Notes under the pieces: generated by a model
Database searches by the model: none
What the model saw: the letters and a program-made list of their open reading frames with translations, nothing else
What the model was told of the DNA's origin: nothing
Translations under genes and position numbers: made by a program
Part shown: one piece after another, positions 5,850 to 62,641 of the stretch
Numbering within the stretch: the stretch's first letter is position 1
Layout: the number at the start of each line of letters is the position of its first letter
Source: a virus
Direction: 5' to 3' (one strand)
IMG/VR virus record: IMGVR_UViG_3300045970_000794
Span: 1-64,000 of that record
DNA: 64,000 nt

Positions 5850-7424
5850 TTAAACTAGTACACTAGCAATTACTGGCACTTTAGCTTTCGCTCTTACTTC
5901 TTCGAAACTCCATTCCTGTGTAATAACACCGTTTTCGAAGACAGTTACCATAACATCTTCAGCTTCTTCAAATCCAGCTTCTTTAGATGTAATAGTCCTA
6001 TAGCTATCAGCAGTCTTAATAAGCTTCATTCTACCAGACTTAGAATTCTTGAAACTACGGATAATATTACCATCAGCATCAATTTCAGTTGGGTGTTTGA
6101 TTAGATTTGTTTCTTTACCATTAATGACAGCAAAACAAGCTTTGAATGCGAAATTTTGAGTATCACGGTTGATATCAGCTTGTAATAATTTACCACCCAT
6201 ACCGAATACTAAATTTTCCATACTGATTTTTTCTTCAACTAACATCGCTAATATTTCAATAATGCTATTAAGATTTACACCATCACCTTGAATCACACGA
6301 ATTTGTGGTGGAAGTACTCTAAAACCTTTTGTATTCACTGTAAATCCAAATTTATCGAATAAAATATTGAATACTTCAAGTAAAGTTCTTTTAGGGTCAC
6401 CACTATCTGGGCGAACCACTAATTGATTACCTGGTTCCGATGGACGGCTCAATATAAGTTCTTTCAATTCCTCACCCCAATATTGTCCACATGCTCTGAA
6501 AATGTTATAACTATCAGAAACGCACGCAACAGGACCTGTTGGGAATACTTGAAGTACTCGCTTCATCACATTACATTCACCTTCTTCACCTTCTTGAGTC
6601 ATAACACTATGCTCAGTTGCTGGAATTGATGCTACATAGATTTTATCACTATTGTAGAACTCAACTGGGGCTTTACCAGCATATACGTTATCAGAACCAC
6701 AGAAATTAACTAAGTGGGCTGAACCACCATTTCTGGCTGATTGTACAGATGATACACCTCTGAAACCAAAATCATTAAGAACGAATTCAGCAATGAATTC
6801 AATAGTTTCAGCTGGTAAATCACAAGTGTCATTGAAAGCTTTCATAACAACTTTCTTAACTTCTCTTGATAATGTAGCTACGGTGATTGGGTACCAAATT
6901 TGTAATAGAATACTTTCTAGGAAGTTGGTTAACCAAGAACAGTTATCATCAGTATTTTCAACGGTCATAAGAACGTTTTTAACTGGTACTGATATACCTT
7001 CTGGAACTGCTTTAATTTTAATAGGTAATTTACCACCATGTTCATTGAGAATATATTCCCATTTAGTGCGGTCGAATACACCTTCTTTACCAAAAACTTG
7101 TGTTAAATACCATTCAGCTTCATCAATGTCTTCCATTGTGAATGTCATACCTTGAAGATATTCTTTAATGAAAATCTGTAAACCATAGAATACGGTTTCA
7201 TCAAACTTACCACCCCTACTTTCTAAGTATGAGTAAATTTTAGTTGTTCCTTTAGCATAAATCTTGTGATGGGAATATTTGTATGCATCCGACAATAAAA
7301 TTAAGTTATGTGGCTTTTCAAGAGCTTTAATTAATAAAGGCTCCATATCTACAATTGCTTCGAAGTCACGATTTTTAATCGCTTCGGCTAATCTTCTTTT
7401 GAGTAATCTCTGTAATGATTGCAT
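5850..7424 (-). CDS. nadV: nicotinamide phosphoribosyltransferase (NAMPT)
   Basis: Family hallmarks LLSDAYKYSHH, DFGFRGVSS, GSDN, IPATEHSVM, VRPDSGDP and VIQGDGV. Confidence 0.9.
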   Translation of the reverse strand: MQSLQRLLKRRLAEAIKNRDFEAIVDMEPLLIKALEKPHNLILLSDAYKYSHHKIYAKGTTKIYSYLESRGGKFDETVFYGLQIFIKEYLQGMTFTMEDIDEAEWYLTQVFGKEGVFDRTKWEYILNEHGGKLPIKIKAVPEGISVPVKNVLMTVENTDDNCSWLTNFLESILLQIWYPITVATLSREVKKVVMKAFNDTCDLPAETIEFIAEFVLNDFGFRGVSSVQSARNGGSAHLVNFCGSDNVYAGKAPVEFYNSDKIYVASIPATEHSVMTQEGEEGECNVMKRVLQVFPTGPVACVSDSYNIFRACGQYWGEELKELILSRPSEPGNQLVVRPDSGDPKRTLLEVFNILFDKFGFTVNTKGFRVLPPQIRVIQGDGVNLNSIIEILAMLVEEKISMENLVFGMGGKLLQADINRDTQNFAFKACFAVINGKETNLIKHPTEIDADGNIIRSFKNSKSGRMKLIKTADSYRTITSKEAGFEEAEDVMVTVFENGVITQEWSFEEVRAKAKVPVIASVLV

Positions 7425-7436
7425 AGTTAAGTTATT

Positions 7437-7985
7437 TTAATTGTTATTGTTTTTATTTAATGAATCCCACCAAATGGTGAATTTGTCTAAAGCTTTTTCT
7501 AATGCGTTGTCACCAATAACTATATCTTCATAATGATAAGGTGATTTAGTCTCGCCATCGGCATGACTTAAACCACTTCGTATTGTACAAAAACTACCAC
7601 CTTCAGTAATTTCAAACCAATCAACCATTGTCATATTACCAAATTTAAATTCTGGATTACATGATAACACTTCTTTCTTCGTCATAACTGATTTGGGGTA
7701 TTTACCATTCCACCATTCATACTCACTATTTTCAGTTTTGAATCTGACATAATGAACATCATCATTTTTAATTTCTTCCAAAATTTCAGTAACAATGGTT
7801 GTTAACCACCAATCTCTCTTACTGTAAGTTCCAGCTATTAAGCTACCAACCTTCATAGAACAACCAACAACTGGAATATGATTAACAACACTTTTGAATG
7901 TATTATCTTCATTCCATTCAATAGCTTCAGATGAAGCACCAACGTAGCCCTCACCATCACTAACACGTCTTAAACTAAATGACAT
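7437..7985 (-). CDS. hypothetical protein (182 aa)
   Basis: ORF track; overlaps the upstream NMNAT gene by 11 nt. Confidence 0.6.
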   Translation of the reverse strand: MSFSLRRVSDGEGYVGASSEAIEWNEDNTFKSVVNHIPVVGCSMKVGSLIAGTYSKRDWWLTTIVTEILEEIKNDDVHYVRFKTENSEYEWWNGKYPKSVMTKKEVLSCNPEFKFGNMTMVDWFEITEGGSFCTIRSGLSHADGETKSPYHYEDIVIGDNALEKALDKFTIWWDSLNKNNNN

Positions 7986-8922
7986 TTTTATTTTCTTTTA
8001 AGTATTTAATTAATTTTTCCATTAATACAATATGTTCTGGTACTATCAACATTTCCAATCCTTCATAATCCATATCAAGTAATGAGTCAATATTAAACCA
8101 CATCAATGCGCTAATATCGTCAGATGGCTTAATAGCACCATATATGAACTTACCAATAAATAAACTTGTAACAATCCCAGAACGTTCTTTAGCATATCGC
8201 CAATCTGGAACCTTAATACTACCAACATATTTTAAATCATCAATCTCACAGTTGCCAGATTCTTCTCTGAATTCTCTTTTAGCGGCAAATTCTAATGATT
8301 CATCACTTACATCCACATGACCACCAATGAATCGCCATTTCTCTTCATTTGGCTTCTGAGCGAGTAATAATTGCTCTTTATCATTATAAGCAACAACATC
8401 AACACATGGATAAGCTACTGGCCATTGTGCTGTGCATGCATGAATAACACCAGCTCTAAAATCTTCTGATTCTAATATTTCCCTAGAAACTTGTTTACGA
8501 ATTTCAGTACCCGAGTAGAAAATATCAGTTATTAATTCAACACTTTGGTACTTACCAGAGTAAAATGGTAGGAATGAATCTCGACTACCATATAATAATG
8601 CACGTTTTTCACCGAAAGGAACTTTAATCATGCTATCTAACTCATGACTCCAAGCTTCGTTTGAGCGATTATCTTTTATTGGTAGAATAATAACGTTTGG
8701 ATATAATTTTTGGACCATTGCTTTCCTTGTGGCAAAATCTAAAGGATTATGGTCAGTATTTTGTACTTGTGGAATACCTAGGAATATGATAACTTTTTTA
8801 TGATTATTACATATGCTATCAATTAGCGCAATATGTCCCTCATGTAATTTATGTACTTGAAATCTTGCAATCATTACACCGACTTCAAAATCAGATGGGT
8901 TTGTACTATTTTTAATTTCCAT
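7975..8922 (-). CDS. natV: bifunctional NMN adenylyltransferase / Nudix hydrolase
   Basis: N-terminal nucleotidyltransferase motif GVMIARFQVHKLHEGH and C-terminal Nudix box GGHVDVSDESLEFAAKREFREESG. Start trimmed to MEIKNST. Confidence 0.85.
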   Translation of the reverse strand: MEIKNSTNPSDFEVGVMIARFQVHKLHEGHIALIDSICNNHKKVIIFLGIPQVQNTDHNPLDFATRKAMVQKLYPNVIILPIKDNRSNEAWSHELDSMIKVPFGEKRALLYGSRDSFLPFYSGKYQSVELITDIFYSGTEIRKQVSREILESEDFRAGVIHACTAQWPVAYPCVDVVAYNDKEQLLLAQKPNEEKWRFIGGHVDVSDESLEFAAKREFREESGNCEIDDLKYVGSIKVPDWRYAKERSGIVTSLFIGKFIYGAIKPSDDISALMWFNIDSLLDMDYEGLEMLIVPEHIVLMEKLIKYLKENKNVI

Positions 8923-8970
8923 AAAACTATTTTTTTTAATGTTGGTGCAAAGATAATACAAATATTTTTA

Positions 8971-18921: not shown

Positions 18922-20046
18922 TTAATTACTATTGACTTGTATCACATCATAAGCTTCTAACAATGTAGGAACTTCTAATTTATTAATCATATTTTCAATA
19001 GCGGCCTCTGGTATCTTACTATCCCTATTGTGATTTTGCTCAAGTAATTTACGGTATGGAGCCTCAATATAAACGATTGTAACTCTACCACCATATGAAG
19101 TGAATAAATCAATCAATTGACTTCTCATTTGTCTAGTGATATTCGTTGCATTCCAAACAAAACTATGTCCTTTACGCATGAATTCTTTAGCCCGTTCCTT
19201 TGCCAACTGAATCACCCTACCATTACCTTTGGTATCACCATACTTAACCCCAAGTTCTTTTCGAATATCATCTAAAGAAATTACATCAGTCTGAGCATAA
19301 TTAAGTATTGCATAATAATCTTTACCAGCACCAGCAATACCACATAACAACGTAACATCAAATTTGGATTCATCAAATGGTTTAAAATCTGGATACGCTT
19401 CTTCATGTGTTAAATAATACAGTCTACCCATATTAGATTTAAATGGATATGGTTGACCAAAACAATTATTTTCAATACATAAATCCTTGAATAATTCAAT
19501 ATCATCTAACTGAGCTTGTGCATCATCACAAATACGACCAATAACATCAGCTTTAGCCAATAAATAAAGTAATTTTGTGTTAACCTTTAATGATGCTTCA
19601 ATCACGTATCGATTAATATCTTTAGCATCACTCCACCATATCGGTAAAGAGTGCCTTCTTACTAAATTGCATATCTCTTCCCTCATATCATAATCAAAAC
19701 ACATATCTCGATACAAAATACTTCTAGCTGTTTTTTCACCTTTATTGCAATGTCCGTGGCTTCTAATTCGCCCATCTTCATAAGTTGTCGTTGAACGCTT
19801 TTCAACGTCATGTAAGACCGCTGAAGCTATCAGAATGCGTTTCTCTATCAGAGTTAATTTGGTAAGCTCAGGGAGCTTTAAAATGGCTTCTACGACCATC
19901 TTGGTATGAATGTAAACATTACCCTCAGCATGCCAAGTTTTATCTTGCTCGACATTTTTCATATCTTGAACCCAATCGAATTTATCAATCTCAGTCCAGT
20001 CAACCGTATTGGTTGAATCATCGTAAAATGGGAATCTATTTGTCAT
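18922..20046 (-). CDS. HD phosphohydrolase fused to a P-loop (polynucleotide-kinase-like) domain
   Basis: HD motif VLHDVEK in the N-half and Walker A CGIAGAGKDYY in the C-half. Confidence 0.7.
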   Translation of the reverse strand: MTNRFPFYDDSTNTVDWTEIDKFDWVQDMKNVEQDKTWHAEGNVYIHTKMVVEAILKLPELTKLTLIEKRILIASAVLHDVEKRSTTTYEDGRIRSHGHCNKGEKTARSILYRDMCFDYDMREEICNLVRRHSLPIWWSDAKDINRYVIEASLKVNTKLLYLLAKADVIGRICDDAQAQLDDIELFKDLCIENNCFGQPYPFKSNMGRLYYLTHEEAYPDFKPFDESKFDVTLLCGIAGAGKDYYAILNYAQTDVISLDDIRKELGVKYGDTKGNGRVIQLAKERAKEFMRKGHSFVWNATNITRQMRSQLIDLFTSYGGRVTIVYIEAPYRKLLEQNHNRDSKIPEAAIENMINKLEVPTLLEAYDVIQVNSN

Positions 20047-21050: not shown

Positions 21051-21362
21051 TTATTTTAAGTTTTTACTACATTCAATTGCTAATTCCTTTGATGACCCTA
21101 TTATTTCATATAAATCATCTGGATGATAACCTAATTCAGTTATACCTATTTCATGATATAATTCAGCTTTTTCATGACATTCACTACAAAGACTAATACC
21201 ATTCTCTTTAACGTACCCACCATTTGGGATGAAATGTCTGTCAGTAATGTGATGCGCATCAATTGCTGGTTCATTACATTTTCGACATTTATCATTATCC
21301 CGAGTAAATACTTCTTTCCTAAAGTTCGCTCGAATTTCCTTTTTCTTGTTCATTTTTTTCAT
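21051..21362 (-). CDS. HNH endonuclease
   Basis: CRKCNEPAIDAHHI...ENGISLCSECHEKAE. Confidence 0.75.
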   Translation of the reverse strand: MKKMNKKKEIRANFRKEVFTRDNDKCRKCNEPAIDAHHITDRHFIPNGGYVKENGISLCSECHEKAELYHEIGITELGYHPDDLYEIIGSSKELAIECSKNLK

Positions 21363-22053
21363 GCATTAGTGGAGCCCGTTTCCACGCTCTAGTCCAGTGC
21401 TCATCTGTTTTGACATGATTAGCACGAACGTACTTGAATACATTGTTTTTAAATTGGTCCACCGAATATTCATTGATATTTCTACTTACGATACCTTCAC
21501 GAGTACAATCTAAACCACTATTTGAATCGATTGAACCAAATACACTTGGTTTGCTTATGATTTGATGTACAATTCTTTTATACTCTTCTTCACATGAAAT
21601 TGATTTCATATCAATAGTGTCTAATAATGGAACCACTGGAAATTCAAAAAAATCAGCATACCAACACACTTCTTCCCAACTTAACCATGTATCTAAAGAC
21701 CTAACACCAAACATAAAAAAATGTGATGGTAAATTAGGGTATAATATCGAATGTACGGCATATAAATTTTCACCAAATAACTCAATATCATTACGTCTTA
21801 AATCCTCTTGTATCATTGAAAACTTTGGTTTAAGATGGTCGGCCCATGGATGTAATGTAGGTGCCGCATGTGACCTAGCAAATATACCGATGCCATTCAT
21901 ACACGTATTTTCACCATCCAATTTCTCAGTGTGTATTACCGTTTCAATCTTCCGCAAATCATCCCAATATTGATGATTAATGCGGTCATCCGAAGTAGTA
22001 CCTGGTGAGAACGGATAATGATATGTTCTTCCGTATTTTTTGCTAATGCTCAT
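21319..22053 (-). CDS. RNA ligase (adenylyltransferase superfamily)
   Basis: Motif I HTEKLDGEN; start trimmed to MSISKKYG. A TATCTTTG promoter box lies at 22076-22069. Confidence 0.65.
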   Translation of the reverse strand: MSISKKYGRTYHYPFSPGTTSDDRINHQYWDDLRKIETVIHTEKLDGENTCMNGIGIFARSHAAPTLHPWADHLKPKFSMIQEDLRRNDIELFGENLYAVHSILYPNLPSHFFMFGVRSLDTWLSWEEVCWYADFFEFPVVPLLDTIDMKSISCEEEYKRIVHQIISKPSVFGSIDSNSGLDCTREGIVSRNINEYSVDQFKNNVFKYVRANHVKTDEHWTRAWKRAPLMHEKNEQEKGNSSEL

Positions 22054-22092
22054 AATTATATTTTTTTGCAAAGATATAAAAAATAAATTAGA

Positions 22093-25407: not shown

Positions 25408-25452
25408 ATCTACAATTTTTTTACACACGTCTTGGATTGTGAACCAAACTTG

Positions 25453-25540
25453 AGCGGTAGGTGGGATTTCAACCCACGGCGTGACATTATCTGACCAGTT
25501 TGGAAGACTGGTGCCATCGAGCAGACTAGGCGACTACCGC
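25453..25540 (-). tRNA. tRNA-Gly(UCC) with an atypical 17-nt variable region
   Basis: Acceptor GCGGTAG/CTACCGC, U73, anticodon arm CCAGT-CTTCCAA-ACTGG, then TCAGATAATGTCACGCC before T arm GTGGG-TTGAAAT-CCCAC. Confidence 0.55.
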
Positions 25541-25541
25541 A

Positions 25542-25587
25542 TGGTGCCGAGGGGTGCTCCCACCATGAGTTCCCTTTCAACTCGGCA
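25542..25587 (-). ncRNA. 46-nt acceptor-stem minihelix with encoded CCA
   Basis: TGCCGAG...GGTG-GGAG-CACC...CTCGGCA-CCA. It has a 7-bp terminal stem and no D or anticodon arms. Confidence 0.3.
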
Positions 25588-25593
25588 TTTTAA

Positions 25594-25872
25594 AAATAAG
25601 ATGAGCTTAGCCGCAATCCTGTTCTATGCTAACATTTATCTATGACCCTTACGAACCATCCTCAATTAAGAGGTGCCTCTACCCGTTCATCATCGACATC
25701 AACGTACCCTATCTAGAACTGTATGAGTTGCATACCGTGTTGCTTCGGTAATAACGATTAGCAGCGACTACTGCATTTAGCAGTTTGTCCTGTTTTATCT
25801 CCCGAATCGTTGAGATATGTTGCGAACTTCCTCAAGTCGTTTCCGACCAGCGTTAGCTTCTCTTTCTTATTT
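25594..25872 (-). ncRNA. rnpB: RNase P RNA-like (bacterial type-A-like, reduced, ~279 nt)
   Basis: P1: 25872-25860 with 25605-25594. P2: GCUAAC (25857-25852) with GUUAGC (25633-25628). P3: GUCG-GAAA-CGAC. CR-I-like GAGGAAGUUCGC (25833-25819) pairs with GCGGCUAAG (25614-25605) leaving a bulged U. Also AACAGGACAAACUGC, GGGUAGAGGCACC and AUAGAAC. Confidence 0.5.
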
Positions 25873-25874
25873 AG

Positions 25875-25958
25875 TACACTCGGAGGGACTCGAACCCACG
25901 TAACCCACTTTAAAAGAGTGGTGCCTCTCGCTTTCGCTACCAACTCGGCCACAAGTGC
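25875..25958 (-). tRNA. tRNA-Lys(UUU)-like with a 21-nt D-loop
   Basis: Acceptor GCACTTG/CGAGTGT (G1-U72); D stem GCC/GGC around GAGTTGGTAGCGAAAGCGAGA; anticodon arm CCACT-CTTTTAA-AGTGG. Confidence 0.45.
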
Positions 25959-26013
25959 AACTTAAATTCTATGATGCGGGTAGGTCGTATCATGTAATTC
26001 ATCATAAAATTTG

Positions 26014-26086
26014 TGGGTTATAAGGGGCTCGAACCCTTGACTCCCACCTTAAAAGGGTGGTACTCTACCAACTGAGTTAATAACCC
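26014..26086 (-). tRNA. tRNA-Lys(UUU)
   Basis: GGGTTAT-TA-ACTC-AGTTGGTA-GAGT-A-CCACC-CTTTTAA-GGTGG-GAGTC-AAGGG-TTCGAGC-CCCTT-ATAACCC-A. Confidence 0.85.
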
Positions 26087-27124: not shown

Positions 27125-27130
27125 ATTTAG

Positions 27131-27201
27131 TTGTCTACAAGGGATTCGAACCCCTACTCTATGGACCAAAACCATATGTACTGCCATTATACTAGAAGAC
27201 A
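27131..27201 (-). tRNA. tRNA-Gln(UUG)
   Basis: U1-A72 acceptor TGTCTTC/GTAGACA (one mismatch); anticodon arm TATGG-TTTTGGT-CCATA. Confidence 0.6.
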
Positions 27202-27207
27202 TAATTG

Positions 27208-27280
27208 AAGCCTCTCTGAGATTCGAACTCAGGTTATTTGGCTCAAAACCAAATGTGATTGACCACTACACTAAGGGGCT
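27208..27280 (-). tRNA. tRNA-Gln(UUG)
   Basis: Acceptor AGCCCCT/AGAGGCT; anticodon arm TTTGG-TTTTGAG-CCAAA; T arm CTGAG-TTCGAAT-CTCAG. Confidence 0.65.
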
Positions 27281-27293
27281 AAAAAGTCAAGGG

Positions 27294-27363
27294 TTGCTTT
27301 ATCGGGACTTGAACCCAAACTAGAACTTTCAGAGAGTTCCGTGCTACACTACACTATAAAGCA
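27294..27363 (-). tRNA. tRNA-Gln(CUG)
   Basis: U1-A72 acceptor TGCTTTA/TAAAGCA; anticodon arm GAACT-CTCTGAA-AGTTC; T arm TTGGG-TTCAAGT-CCCGA. Confidence 0.75.
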
Positions 27364-27595
27364 ATAACTTGTCATCACGCCAGACTCGATACTGGAATTC
27401 TGCGGCCGCAGTGAGATGCTTTCTCCACGAGATGAAAAAGAACAGGTTAACTTTGTTTTCTTACCAAAAAAGAGTTTAAATTTGCTGAATGTAACCTTTA
27501 TCTTGTCGAATTATAAGGATTCGAACCTATTAACTTGGTTAATTACTCCAAGTACCGCCTACGTACAATTTCTTGCATGGTAGTTAACTCGTTTG

Positions 27596-56713: not shown

Positions 56714-57538
56714 TTAAATTAAGTTAATTTTTATATAATTAACACCTATTGGATTTTTTTTTCGTAATTCAATAAAATACGGTTTTAATTTATCTTTTAA
56801 CGGAACTTCAAACCCATTTTCTTTTTCAAACCATATTTTACCGTCTTCAGACTCATACGCAACATTATTATTCCAAACTTCCACACCAAAAGCCCTACCA
56901 AATGGACATTCCTTTTCAACCGCTTCAACCAATTTAGCCATTATATCAGCAGCAACCACTGGGTTGTTGAAATTAACTTCGATTTCGTATGTGTCATAAT
57001 CTAAAATATTGAAAATCTTAGCTTCTGGTATCTTAACTAACTTTAATTGTTCGTCATTAATCCAAGCCTCACCAATTTTAATAGCAAAGATTACAAATCT
57101 TTTATCAAGCTGATTCAAAGCAACACCCTTCTGGATGCTACCACCACACCATTCACCATAGATTCTAATATCTGGATTCACCTTTTCATCAGTACCATAC
57201 TTTTTAAGGTCTGGCAATAATTCTAAAAGACGAAATACGTCATTAGTATATGCAAAAGTAGCGAAGCCAGCATTATCTTTTGCTGGAGTAATAATATTTT
57301 CTCTTGATTGAGCGTGAAAGTCATATGCTGCAAGGTCTATATCATATTGGAATATAATACCACCATTAGTACCATGAAGTTTAACACTACCTCTAAATTT
57401 AAGAGTTGGTAGTTTGATTGTTTCATCGAAAATTGGTTCACCAGAATCATCTTTACCAGTGAATTGTGTACGATACTTAACAGATACTATAACACTTCTG
57501 AATTGTTCAATATCTGGAAATGAGTAAAATTTTTTCAT
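56714..57538 (-). CDS. N-terminal part of a split Rnl2-type RNA ligase (motifs I-IIIa)
   Basis: SVKLHGTN (motif I; T4 Rnl2 has KIHGTN), IRIYGEWCG and FVIFAIKI. Ligase-like sequence ends near ...CPFGRAFGVE (about 56879), followed by a 54-aa unrelated tail. Confidence 0.6.
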   Translation of the reverse strand: MKKFYSFPDIEQFRSVIVSVKYRTQFTGKDDSGEPIFDETIKLPTLKFRGSVKLHGTNGGIIFQYDIDLAAYDFHAQSRENIITPAKDNAGFATFAYTNDVFRLLELLPDLKKYGTDEKVNPDIRIYGEWCGGSIQKGVALNQLDKRFVIFAIKIGEAWINDEQLKLVKIPEAKIFNILDYDTYEIEVNFNNPVVAADIMAKLVEAVEKECPFGRAFGVEVWNNNVAYESEDGKIWFEKENGFEVPLKDKLKPYFIELRKKNPIGVNYIKINLI

Positions 57539-61510: not shown

Positions 61511-62641
61511 CTAAAGAATACTGTATAATTTTCGATTATCAAATTCAATCATATATTCTTTAATATTTGATATTTTACCATCTTTCAATCCGAACATAAG
61601 TCCAGTAAAGTTAGAAACTCCATTTTTCTTAGTAACTTCAAATACAGCCTCAGCATACTTTTTCTTTTCAGCTGGTGTAATGTTCTTTGGTAATCTTCCT
61701 TGTAATTCTTCCCATGTTTCAGTCAATTTTACCACTAACATATTGTATTTAACATGAAGGTCAAAGATTTCTTCCCTACGTTCTGGGAATGTAGCTGCAA
61801 ATTCTTCAATTTCGTTAGTTTTAACGATTTCTAGAATATTATATTCAGCAGTCTTAGACTTCAAGTGATGTACCGCAAGATATGCTGGATTTTTAATTTT
61901 AATTCTATTGAAGGAACCATCAACAACAACATATCCTTCTTCAGTGAATGGCATACCATCAAAAGTTCTCTTCAACGCACCAACATCCTTAATATTAAGG
62001 TCAAATCGCTTAACTGCTGGTGTGAATAAATACCCACTCACATAAACTAAACTATCATATGGTGCTTCACCCAATGTAGATAAATCCCTAATTGTTAATA
62101 AAGTTACTGATGATACACCGTGTGGTGTAACAACAATATTATATGGTGTTGTTAATTCAAATGCATAACACCATTTTTTATTTAACGCTAATTTGAATCT
62201 ATGATTATTACCAGTAACCTTTTCAATAGTTTCCCAGAATAAATCAGCGAAAGTAGTACCCATTTTATTGTTTACTTCACCTTCTGCTTCAGCCATACCA
62301 GATGTTGAAACACACCAATCATTCTTATGCCAATCCCAATACAATTGCATTAAGGACCCATCCACCTTTTCAAGTATATGAGCAGTATCCCAATCAATTC
62401 TAGCTGCATGAGTTTCTTCAGCATTAAAGAATTTACGGAATGTAAAGCACATAACTCTCCAAGTATCCTTTTCTAATATAATACCTCTAGCATCTTGTGT
62501 TTCAGCAAAACCCATTGGAGACTCTAACTGGTCATATTTTAATAAGATTTTCTTATCATATACCTTAGTCTTCAATTTAAATGTATCAATAGCCTTAGCT
62601 AGACCATTTTTCTTAATATAATTTATTAATGCTAGTTCCAT
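61511..62641 (-). CDS. rnlA: Rnl1-type RNA ligase (T4 RnlA-like)
   Basis: DARGIILE, FRKFFNAEE, motif I ILEKVDGSL, FELT, EGYVVV and RIKIKNP. Confidence 0.75.
   Translation of the reverse strand: MELALINYIKKNGLAKAIDTFKLKTKVYDKKILLKYDQLESPMGFAETQDARGIILEKDTWRVMCFTFRKFFNAEETHAARIDWDTAHILEKVDGSLMQLYWDWHKNDWCVSTSGMAEAEGEVNNKMGTTFADLFWETIEKVTGNNHRFKLALNKKWCYAFELTTPYNIVVTPHGVSSVTLLTIRDLSTLGEAPYDSLVYVSGYLFTPAVKRFDLNIKDVGALKRTFDGMPFTEEGYVVVDGSFNRIKIKNPAYLAVHHLKSKTAEYNILEIVKTNEIEEFAATFPERREEIFDLHVKYNMLVVKLTETWEELQGRLPKNITPAEKKKYAEAVFEVTKKNGVSNFTGLMFGLKDGKISNIKEYMIEFDNRKLYSIL

Follow-up and report, generated by a model that had tools for sequence, protein, structure and literature searches.

Here we describe a phage RNA gene that resembles the RNA subunit of ribonuclease P (RNase P). 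It occupies positions 25594-25872 on the minus strand of the window, by which we mean the whole 64,000-nt stretch of DNA analysed here (positions 1 to 64,000 of the viral record IMGVR_UViG_3300045970_000794), and extends over 279 nt from the 5' strand to the 3' strand of the terminal helix P1, within an array of tRNA genes. The segment is a real structured RNA gene. It is almost certainly homologous to RNase P RNA, and it is best read as a divergent, reduced homologue of the bacterial type A RNA. As to its function, we propose, with a probability of roughly two in three, that it is the catalytic subunit of a type A-like phage RNase P, which would use the host protein RnpA to mature the phage tRNAs. 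A first-pass annotation, made from the sequence of the window, had already drawn this minus-strand segment and its main helices much as they are found here and had interpreted it as an RNase P RNA-like gene among phage tRNAs; that interpretation is now supported by Rfam matches of related RNAs, by models from which the window was left out, and by covariation.

The window RNA has relatives in many phages. A search with the pattern GAGGAAGTTCGC-N(150-180)-AGATAAATG returned seven viral contigs, all visibly homologous, in which the P2 sequences differ and yet are complementary. Additional patterns and nhmmer extended the family to at least 46 anchored members (43 distinct alignment rows); a separate nhmmer result comprises 56 near-full-length matches (50 distinct sequences) in 60 loci. 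The members are about 170-330 nt long and lie on contigs of up to 519 kb, as well as in the closed huge-phage genomes LR756501, LR756503 (735 kb), LR756502 (642 kb), and LR745206 (635 kb), whose GenBank records leave the gene unannotated, which is an annotation gap. An nhmmer profile constructed from all other members finds the window at 25593-25870 (E=4.6e-29), and a profile of the subgroup that contains the member L053, with the window left out, finds it with E=9e-9. In addition, a covariance model (R1) based on 15 short members and their RNAalifold structure, again without the window, matches positions 25595-25870 with 88.8 bits (E=8e-26). With these window-free nhmmer and covariance models, the RNA gene is the sole significant locus in the entire 64 kb, and on these sequence matches we regard it as an unambiguous member of the family.

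The relationship to RNase P is established through the relatives. In a relaxed Rfam scan, L053 (11675-11942) matches the bacterial type A model RNaseP_bact_a (RF00010) over model positions 1-367 with 45.3 bits (E=8.7e-11 in a 69-kb search and 5e-13 in a search of 401 nt), and L099 (7793-7975) matches the archaeal model RNaseP_arch (RF00373) over positions 1-288 with 35.6 bits (E=1.5e-6). The alignment of L053 to RF00010 maps P1, P2, P3, conserved region I (CR-I), P5, P7, P15, P16/17, 'CGGGU' (L15), and P18, and also 'AGAUAAAUG' (J18/2), 'ACAGAAC' (J2/4), and the 3' strands of P4 and P1; about 110 model positions, corresponding to P10-P14, are deleted in it.

Further evidence for the structure comes from covariation. 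A 115-column block alignment was set by sequence anchors and was left unchanged by MAFFT, and 30 pairs were counted in P2, P3, P4, P5, P15, and P16; P3 and P4 are defined purely by the anchors, and the registers of P15 and P16, together with two anchors, were picked by pairing from few alternatives. In 20 homologues 98.6% of the cells are paired, and changes on both sides occur in 22 of the 30 pairs (140 cells). Not one of 500 shuffles attains the observed value for any of the five measures, and pairing falls to 29-49% in slid controls. When 42 sequences are used, pairing amounts to 99.0% and new compensatory variants of P4 appear. RNAalifold served as an unbiased check: from a plain MAFFT alignment of 15 members that excludes the window, it predicts P1, P3, P4, P5, P7, P15, P16, and P17, and 27 of its 42 predicted pairs are compensatory. 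The P6 pseudoknot, in which the 12 nt after P5 pair with the P17 loop, was assessed by Watson-Crick pairs only: at least five contiguous pairs are formed in 19 of 20 cognate combinations, which involve 16 different strand sequences, against 13.5% of the non-cognate ones. This form of the test replaced a longest-helix version allowing G-U pairs, which was too permissive, being passed by 69% of the non-cognate pairs. Helices are thus kept by compensatory changes in at least 46 members, which argues for selection on structure.

All elements of the window RNA are given here with minus-strand coordinates. The gene begins with AAAUAAGAAAGAG (25860-25872) and ends with CUCAUCUUAUUU (25594-25605), and on a reading of the sequence these two strands form P1, with a small internal loop, as the first-pass annotation had drawn it; in the relatives P1 is predicted independently by RNAalifold and contains compensatory changes. 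P2 pairs GCUAAC (25852-25857) with GUUAGC (25628-25633), again as drawn before, and has both-sided changes at five of its six pairs across the family. The hairpin GUCG-GAAA-CGAC proposed as P3 is likewise present, and the family alignment lengthens it to CUGGUCG-GAAA-CGACUUG (25833-25850), the last G of which is the first G of GAGGAAG; the outer pairs of P3 covary, and many relatives have a GNRA loop. The nested order of P1, P2, and P3 at the 5' end, closed by the second strands of P2 and P1 at the 3' end, is that of type A RNA. The CR-I-like block GAGGAAGUUCGCAA (25820-25833) supplies the 5' strand of P4 (AG, a bulged U, and UCGCAA), and its earlier pairing with UUGCGGCU (25609-25616), a CR-V-like 3' strand followed by A, with one U bulged, holds as well. 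All eight pairs of this long-range helix are 100% paired across the family, three of them are compensatory, and RNAalifold finds P4 unaided; GAGGAAGUUC does not vary among the anchored members on which the counts are based. P4 is preceded on the 3' side by J2/4, AUAGAACAGGA (25617-25627), whose ACAGGA is homologous to the bacterial ACAGAA, and P2 is preceded by the CR-IV-like J18/2, AGAUAAAU (25634-25641), followed by the G that opens the 3' strand of P2. The J18/2 block is invariant in the anchored members and aligns with AGAugAAUG of RF00010.

The remaining helices of the catalytic part, namely P5, P15, P16, P17, and the P6 pseudoknot between J5/7 and L17, are also those found in type A RNA. 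P5 pairs CAUA (25816-25819) with UAUG (25731-25734), being 100% paired with covariation at four of four pairs, and P6 is formed by UCAACG (25808-25813, J5/7) and CGUUGA (25699-25704, P17 loop). Positions 25677-25730 hold CAA, P15 (CUC / GAG), J5/15 (AUACA), P16 (GUUC / GAAC), P17 (UAGAUA / UGUCGA), and L15 (GGGUA). Every pair of P15 and P16 covaries, and P15, P16, and P17 are predicted by RNAalifold in the relatives. The GGU of L15 is invariant between the 3' strands of P16 and P15, and its assumed role is pairing with the CCA end of the tRNA. Two hairpins lie between P15 and J18/2 (25642-25673); the second one, AUGGUUC-GUAA-GGGUCAU, is P18-like with a GNRA loop, and the hairpin at this site in the relatives also ends in GNRA, some relatives having no hairpin there. 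What is left of the specificity domain occupies positions 25744-25806 and consists of P7 (UUCGG / CCGAA) around GAG, one variable hairpin, and the conserved CGUUAUUA; P7 is predicted by RNAalifold with covariation. Across the family this domain is cut to P7, one variable hairpin, and a conserved CGUUAnnACC, and P10-P14 and CR-II/III are missing.

Other assignments of the first-pass annotation had to be revised. AUAGAAC had been taken for the equivalent of J2/4; according to both the Rfam alignment of L053 and the family alignment, the homologue is the ACAGGA directly 5' of the P4 3' strand. A DNA pattern based on that assignment, TAGATAAATGNNNNNNATAGAAC, had yielded seven chance matches in coding regions, the motif not being the conserved one. 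The block GGGUAGAGGCACC, compared earlier with CR-II/III, is the GGU of L15 with the 3' strand of P15, as shown by the L053 alignment and the covariation of P15, and AACAGGACAAACUGC, thought to be another conserved block, sits in a hairpin that varies between relatives. Both resemblances to the specificity domain are therefore rejected, that domain being mostly gone.

The family is strongly linked to tRNA genes. A tRNA lies within 3 kb in 34 of 46 members, and at least three tRNAs in 27. With the RNA ends approximated from the anchors, a same-strand tRNA ends within about 30 nt upstream in 10 members and starts within about 30 nt downstream in 13; in L053 a tRNA starts 1 nt past the end of the RNA as defined by Rfam. 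In relatives of the window phage, which were traced via a GP88-like protein, the RNA remains flanked by Lys tRNAs on one side and Gly/Gln/Thr tRNAs on the other. Roughly one member in four, including the copies in the 635-735 kb phages, stands alone with no tRNA within 3 kb; one of these (L182) has a hairpin and a terminator-like T run 3' of the RNA. Outside phages the signature is nearly absent: a scan of 185,579 bacterial and archaeal species, one genome per species, returned one true member, located on a 3-kb contig binned with a Roizmanbacteria metagenome-assembled genome. This contig carries 13 tRNAs with duplicates and therefore looks like phage DNA itself.

In several members the motif GTTCTTTG precedes P1 by about 10 nt; in the window it is found at 27968-27975 (minus strand), immediately before the array's first tRNA, which suggests that the RNA is co-transcribed with the tRNAs. 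It is a candidate promoter element of phage or Bacteroidota type. More generally, it stands about 10-20 nt upstream of RNA or tRNA 5' ends, preceding the RNA in L053, L055, L057, L087, L098, L129, and L138, and has eight copies in the window compared with 2.6 expected.

These observations can be combined into a tentative model. Transcription of the RNA would be part of that of the tRNA array, with a probable promoter near 27968-27975, upstream of tRNA-Pro, and the processing that frees the neighbouring tRNAs would free the RNA as well. It would then bind the host RnpA protein and cleave the 5' leaders of the many phage tRNA precursors, including several oversized or tightly spaced ones, and so make phage tRNA maturation less dependent on the host RNase P RNA. 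The retained scaffold includes P1-P5, the P6 pseudoknot, P7, P15-P17, the GGU of L15, the P18-like GNRA hairpin, J18/2, and J2/4. Strict conservation is found where the active site is built and where the acceptor end is held, so that a role as catalytic subunit appears the most economical reading; L15 could continue to hold the tRNA 3' end in place, which has been proposed for the archaeal type T enzyme. The broader proposition, that large and huge phages of up to 735 kb, with hosts probably in the Bacteroidota and other groups, encode their own active miniature RNase P ribozyme, perhaps processing unusual packed tRNA precursors independently of the host RNase P RNA, seems to us slightly more likely than not. 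As a speculation, an enzyme that lacks the elbow-measuring domain might better tolerate the oversized, odd, and CCA-less tRNAs of the window.

A number of results weigh against the catalytic role or even against the RNase P assignment. No RNase P match was found with Rfam 15 in the whole window at gathering thresholds or in a 701-nt slice at E<=10, and no Rfam 15 family of any kind matches the window RNA locus. The first-pass annotation had proposed a cmsearch with the Rfam RNase P models as a check and regarded the lack of any match, together with that of a stable RNA of this size, as grounds for abandoning the idea; for the window sequence itself the check is negative and such a match is indeed lacking, whereas relatives match RNase P models significantly, and for this reason we do not consider the Rfam result a refutation. 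The scores of these relatives are well under the gathering thresholds (45 vs 100 bits and 36 vs 84 bits), still being statistically significant. CR-I reads GAGGAAGUUCG instead of the near-universal GAGGAAAGUCC, the bacterial consensus of RF00010 and E. coli M1 RNA, so positions adjacent to the active site are altered. The simplest reading of this change would be that P4 has lost an A-U pair above the bulged U and gained a pair below it, the P4 strand being AAG-U-UCGCG compared with AAAG-U-CCGG. In the divergent members L183 and L015 the P4 G-C pair adjacent to the bulge is swapped, compensatorily, to C-G; CR-I reads GA(A)AC-U in both (L183 2959-3178 in LR745206, L015 15365-15650), and the swapped site ordinarily ranks with the most conserved ones of RNase P RNAs. 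The module that recognizes the T-loop and reads the tRNA elbow (P10-P14, CR-II/III) is absent. Only one of 26 window tRNAs encodes CCA, hence pairing of L15 with CCA would need prior CCA addition. As for protein partners, no Ribonuclease_P domain was detected with Pfam in 10 large and 30 small open reading frames (ORFs) of the window, an rnpA gene outside the window or too divergent being possible, and no neighbouring gene is conserved, as no cluster occurs in more than six loci in an all-versus-all BLAST of ORFs within 2.5 kb of 46 members; the use of host RnpA is therefore what we infer.

Given the altered CR-I, the loss of the elbow reader, and the existence of stand-alone copies, the RNA may be a descendant of RNase P RNA that has been repurposed, a possibility that we rate as rather unlikely and yet worth keeping in mind. 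Such an RNA could act as a decoy that soaks up RnpA or tRNA precursors and shuts down host tRNA maturation, or as a ribozyme that has switched to a new and narrower substrate, for example certain phage transcripts or unusual tRNA-like structures. The replacement of GAGGAAAGUCC by GAGGAAGUUCG beside the catalytic site, the loss of tRNA-elbow recognition, and the members with no tRNA nearby, including those of the 635-735 kb phages, would fit it. However, conservation is strictest in the bulged U of P4, J18/2, J2/4, J5/15, and the GGU of L15, that is, where the active site is formed and the acceptor end is held, and the linkage to tRNA arrays is strong; moreover, a protein sponge would need neither P15/L15 nor the P6 pseudoknot.

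Two further explanations deny a functional phage RNase P RNA altogether. The reduced length compared with cellular RNase P RNAs and the failed Rfam thresholds might indicate that the phage picked up a piece of a host rnpB gene that is now decaying into a pseudogene, or that bacterial DNA was mis-assembled into viral contigs. This is very improbable: it is already contradicted by covariation, as at least 46 members in different phage contigs have helices under compensatory change, and the RNA is present in closed 635-735 kb phage genomes. In addition, the signature is nearly absent from 185,579 species genomes, and the position between tRNA-Lys and tRNA-Gly/Gln/Thr is common to relatives of the window phage. 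Finally, the lack of a direct Rfam match and a single-sequence fold of 25594-25872 that is only modestly better than shuffles (z = -2.3) would fit a chance resemblance in a spacer or in degenerate tRNA sequence; the window-free models (E 1e-26 to 1e-29) and covariation above all 500 shuffles have already refuted this reading, to which we assign practically no weight. The proposed catalytic subunit of a phage RNase P, acting with host RnpA, is the interpretation that we retain.

The RNA gene is hosted by a tRNA array on the minus strand, and the window contains 27 tRNA genes according to ARAGORN and 25 according to Rfam. The upstream neighbour (25875-25960, minus strand) is an 86-nt tRNA-Lys(UUU)-like gene with an enlarged D-loop carrying an insertion of about 12 nt. 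The tRNA reported there by the first-pass annotation is this tRNA-like gene; it is below the Rfam threshold, and its 3' end lies 2 nt, and not 3 nt, before the RNA. ARAGORN does not call it, Rfam gives 26.5 bits for 25875-25946 (gathering score 29), and its acceptor stem out to 25960 is our reading of the sequence. Because comparable tRNA-Lys(UUU) genes of 86-87 nt are called in the relatives L010 (3903-3988) and L013 (5690-5776), we take it for a probable unusual but conserved tRNA rather than a pseudogene. Further upstream comes a genuine tRNA-Lys(UUU) (26013-26086, minus strand). The downstream neighbour, found by both ARAGORN and Rfam 53 nt after the RNA, is an 89-nt tRNA-Gly(UCC) with a long variable region (25452-25540, minus strand). 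Other oversized or odd tRNAs, all on the minus strand, include a 113-nt match by Rfam alone (34931-35043), a 91-nt tRNA-Ala(AGC) (33743-33833), a tRNA with undetermined anticodon (37574-37648), and Val and Cys tRNAs of 86 nt (40700-40785 and 41785-41870). A Gln-Gln-Gln tandem occupies positions 27130-27364. About two-thirds of the tRNA trailers (17 of 26 by our count) start with C and an A-rich run, for example CAAA, directly after the discriminator base, which may be a shared 3'-processing signal.

The spacer between the RNA and tRNA-Gly(UCC) contains a conserved element of about 45 nt (25541-25587 on the minus strand; 8988-9035 in L012). Its outer stem is GCCGAG / CUCGGC in the window and CCAGAG / CUCUGG in L012, and inside this stem UUGAAAGGGAA is followed by an inner hairpin GGUG-GGAG-CACC. 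No Rfam family matches the element. A ribozyme of the hepatitis delta virus-like or theta type in the 53-nt spacer 25541-25593 was considered and rejected: the P2-like pairing of the window is missing in L012, where just a hairpin remains within the outer stem, so that the nested double pseudoknot (P1, P1.1, P2, P3, and a catalytic C in J4/2) is not seen, and Rfam yields no match.

Other loci of the family have peculiarities of their own. In L012, a relative of the window phage, the RNase P-like gene is interrupted in P16/P17 by about 480 nt (8400-8890), an insert also present in L011, another such relative; it carries an HNH_3/NUMOD4 homing-endonuclease ORF, and part of the P17 loop sequence is duplicated. 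A group I intron was considered for the interrupted gene of L012 and dropped, as Rfam gives no intron match. Weak, sub-threshold matches (22-36 bits) to Rfam transfer-messenger RNA (tmRNA) families near the RNA in L055 (10841-10914), L057 (2974-3047), and L129 (5717-5808) could represent either the tRNA-like part of phage tmRNAs or unusual tRNAs.

The window has a G+C content of about 30% and a gene content typical for a large virulent phage, with NAMPT, a protein sorted by the type IX secretion system, an HD/kinase protein, and a GP88-like protein; the second of these hints at a Bacteroidota host. It also encodes proteins related to Rnl1 and Rnl2 of T4 as well as GIY-YIG homing endonucleases, and HNH genes are interspersed among the tRNAs. 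Three RNA-ligase genes, the Rnl1-like and Rnl2-like ones included (21319-22071, 56714-57538, 61511-62641), together with the genes for the HD+kinase protein (18922-20046), NAMPT (5850-7424), and a NUDIX/cytidylyltransferase protein (7975-8961), make up a toolkit for tRNA repair and nicotinamide adenine dinucleotide salvage beside the tRNA array. Searches of GenBank phages with the window DNA and with a neighbouring protein gave tRNA-level matches or none, and no close relative.

If these phages indeed encode an active RNase P RNA, it would be the first one from a virus, and the members of about 170 nt would be the smallest natural RNAs of the bacterial type. The first-pass annotation had noted that a phage RNase P RNA was not an established feature, and indeed no phage- or virus-encoded one was found in the full-text literature searched, in which subscription journals were partly covered and a prior description is possible. 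The nearest reports concern reduced RNase P RNAs of bacteria of the candidate phyla radiation (CPR) (PMC8172020) and the type T RNA (PMC7191817, PMC10966300). The finding gives a new place to RNase P RNA, hitherto regarded as a cellular and organellar gene, and a phage copy would add tRNA 5' maturation to the translation functions that large phages bring with them, such as tRNAs, tRNA repair, and tmRNA-like genes. Since the family keeps P4, P6, P15/L15, and J18/2 and drops P10-P14, it reveals what the bacterial ribozyme can do without; it is a natural minimisation experiment, parallel to the archaeal type T RNA, and so compact an RNA, with members of about 170-280 nt, could serve structural and engineering work.

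Among known RNase P RNAs, bacterial type A (RF00010, E. coli M1 RNA) is the closest. The phage RNA has the same helix order, P1-P2-P3-P4-P5-(P6)-P7 ... P15-P16-P17-P18-P2'-P4'-P1', the long-range P4 with its bulged U, the P6 between J5/7 and L17, the GGU of L15, and a P18-like GNRA hairpin, and L053 aligns over the full RF00010 model (E=5e-13). J18/2 is AGAUAAAUG in the phage RNA and AGAUGAAUG in bacterial type A, and J2/4 of the phage RNA is ACAG(A/G)A. In contrast to type A, the phage RNA is 170-330 nt long instead of about 340-400 nt, lacks P10-P14 and CR-II/III, has GAGGAAGUUCG as its CR-I, and is phage-encoded, often inside tRNA arrays; the family scores at most 45 bits against a gathering score of 100, the window copy being unmatched.

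In design the phage RNA resembles the archaeal type T RNase P RNA of Pyrobaculum and other Thermoproteaceae, which is active in spite of having no specificity domain (Lai et al. 2010, as described in PMC7191817 and PMC10966300). It agrees with the definition of that type (PMC7191817) in that the catalytic domain is kept and the specificity domain is nearly all lost, and in both RNAs L15 could still pair with the tRNA 3' end. However, type T RNA belongs to archaea, acts together with archaeal proteins, and is the sole RNase P RNA of the cell, whereas the phage RNA descends from bacterial type A (P6, P16/17, P18) and would form an extra copy alongside that of the host. It is not a member of type T, because it is phage-encoded, its best full-model match is bacterial type A, and P6, P16/17, and P18 are present. 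An isolated RNase P catalytic domain can be activated with or without the bacterial protein (PMC2615603).

Reduced RNase P RNAs are also known from cells, for instance the 276-nt RNA of Mycoplasma fermentans without P12 and the CPR bacterial RNAs without P12-P14 and P18 (PMC8172020). Like the phage RNA, they have lost helices of the specificity domain, fall below Rfam thresholds, and needed manual refolding. Unlike it, the M. fermentans and CPR RNAs are the sole essential rnpB genes of their cells; many CPR RNAs have lost the CCA-pairing motif of L15 (UGG in PMC8172020), which the phage family keeps as GGU. Furthermore, the phage signature occurs on only one short phage-like contig among the genomes of 185,579 species.

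Stable RNAs other than tRNAs are found in phage tRNA clusters as well. The tRNA cluster of T4 contains two small stable RNAs. Another example is the GOLLD RNA (PMC6582537). Like the window RNA, these RNAs lie among phage tRNA genes and are probably co-transcribed with them and released by tRNA processing; they differ in having no relation to RNase P in sequence or structure, whereas the phage RNA described here has an identifiable ribozyme ancestry.

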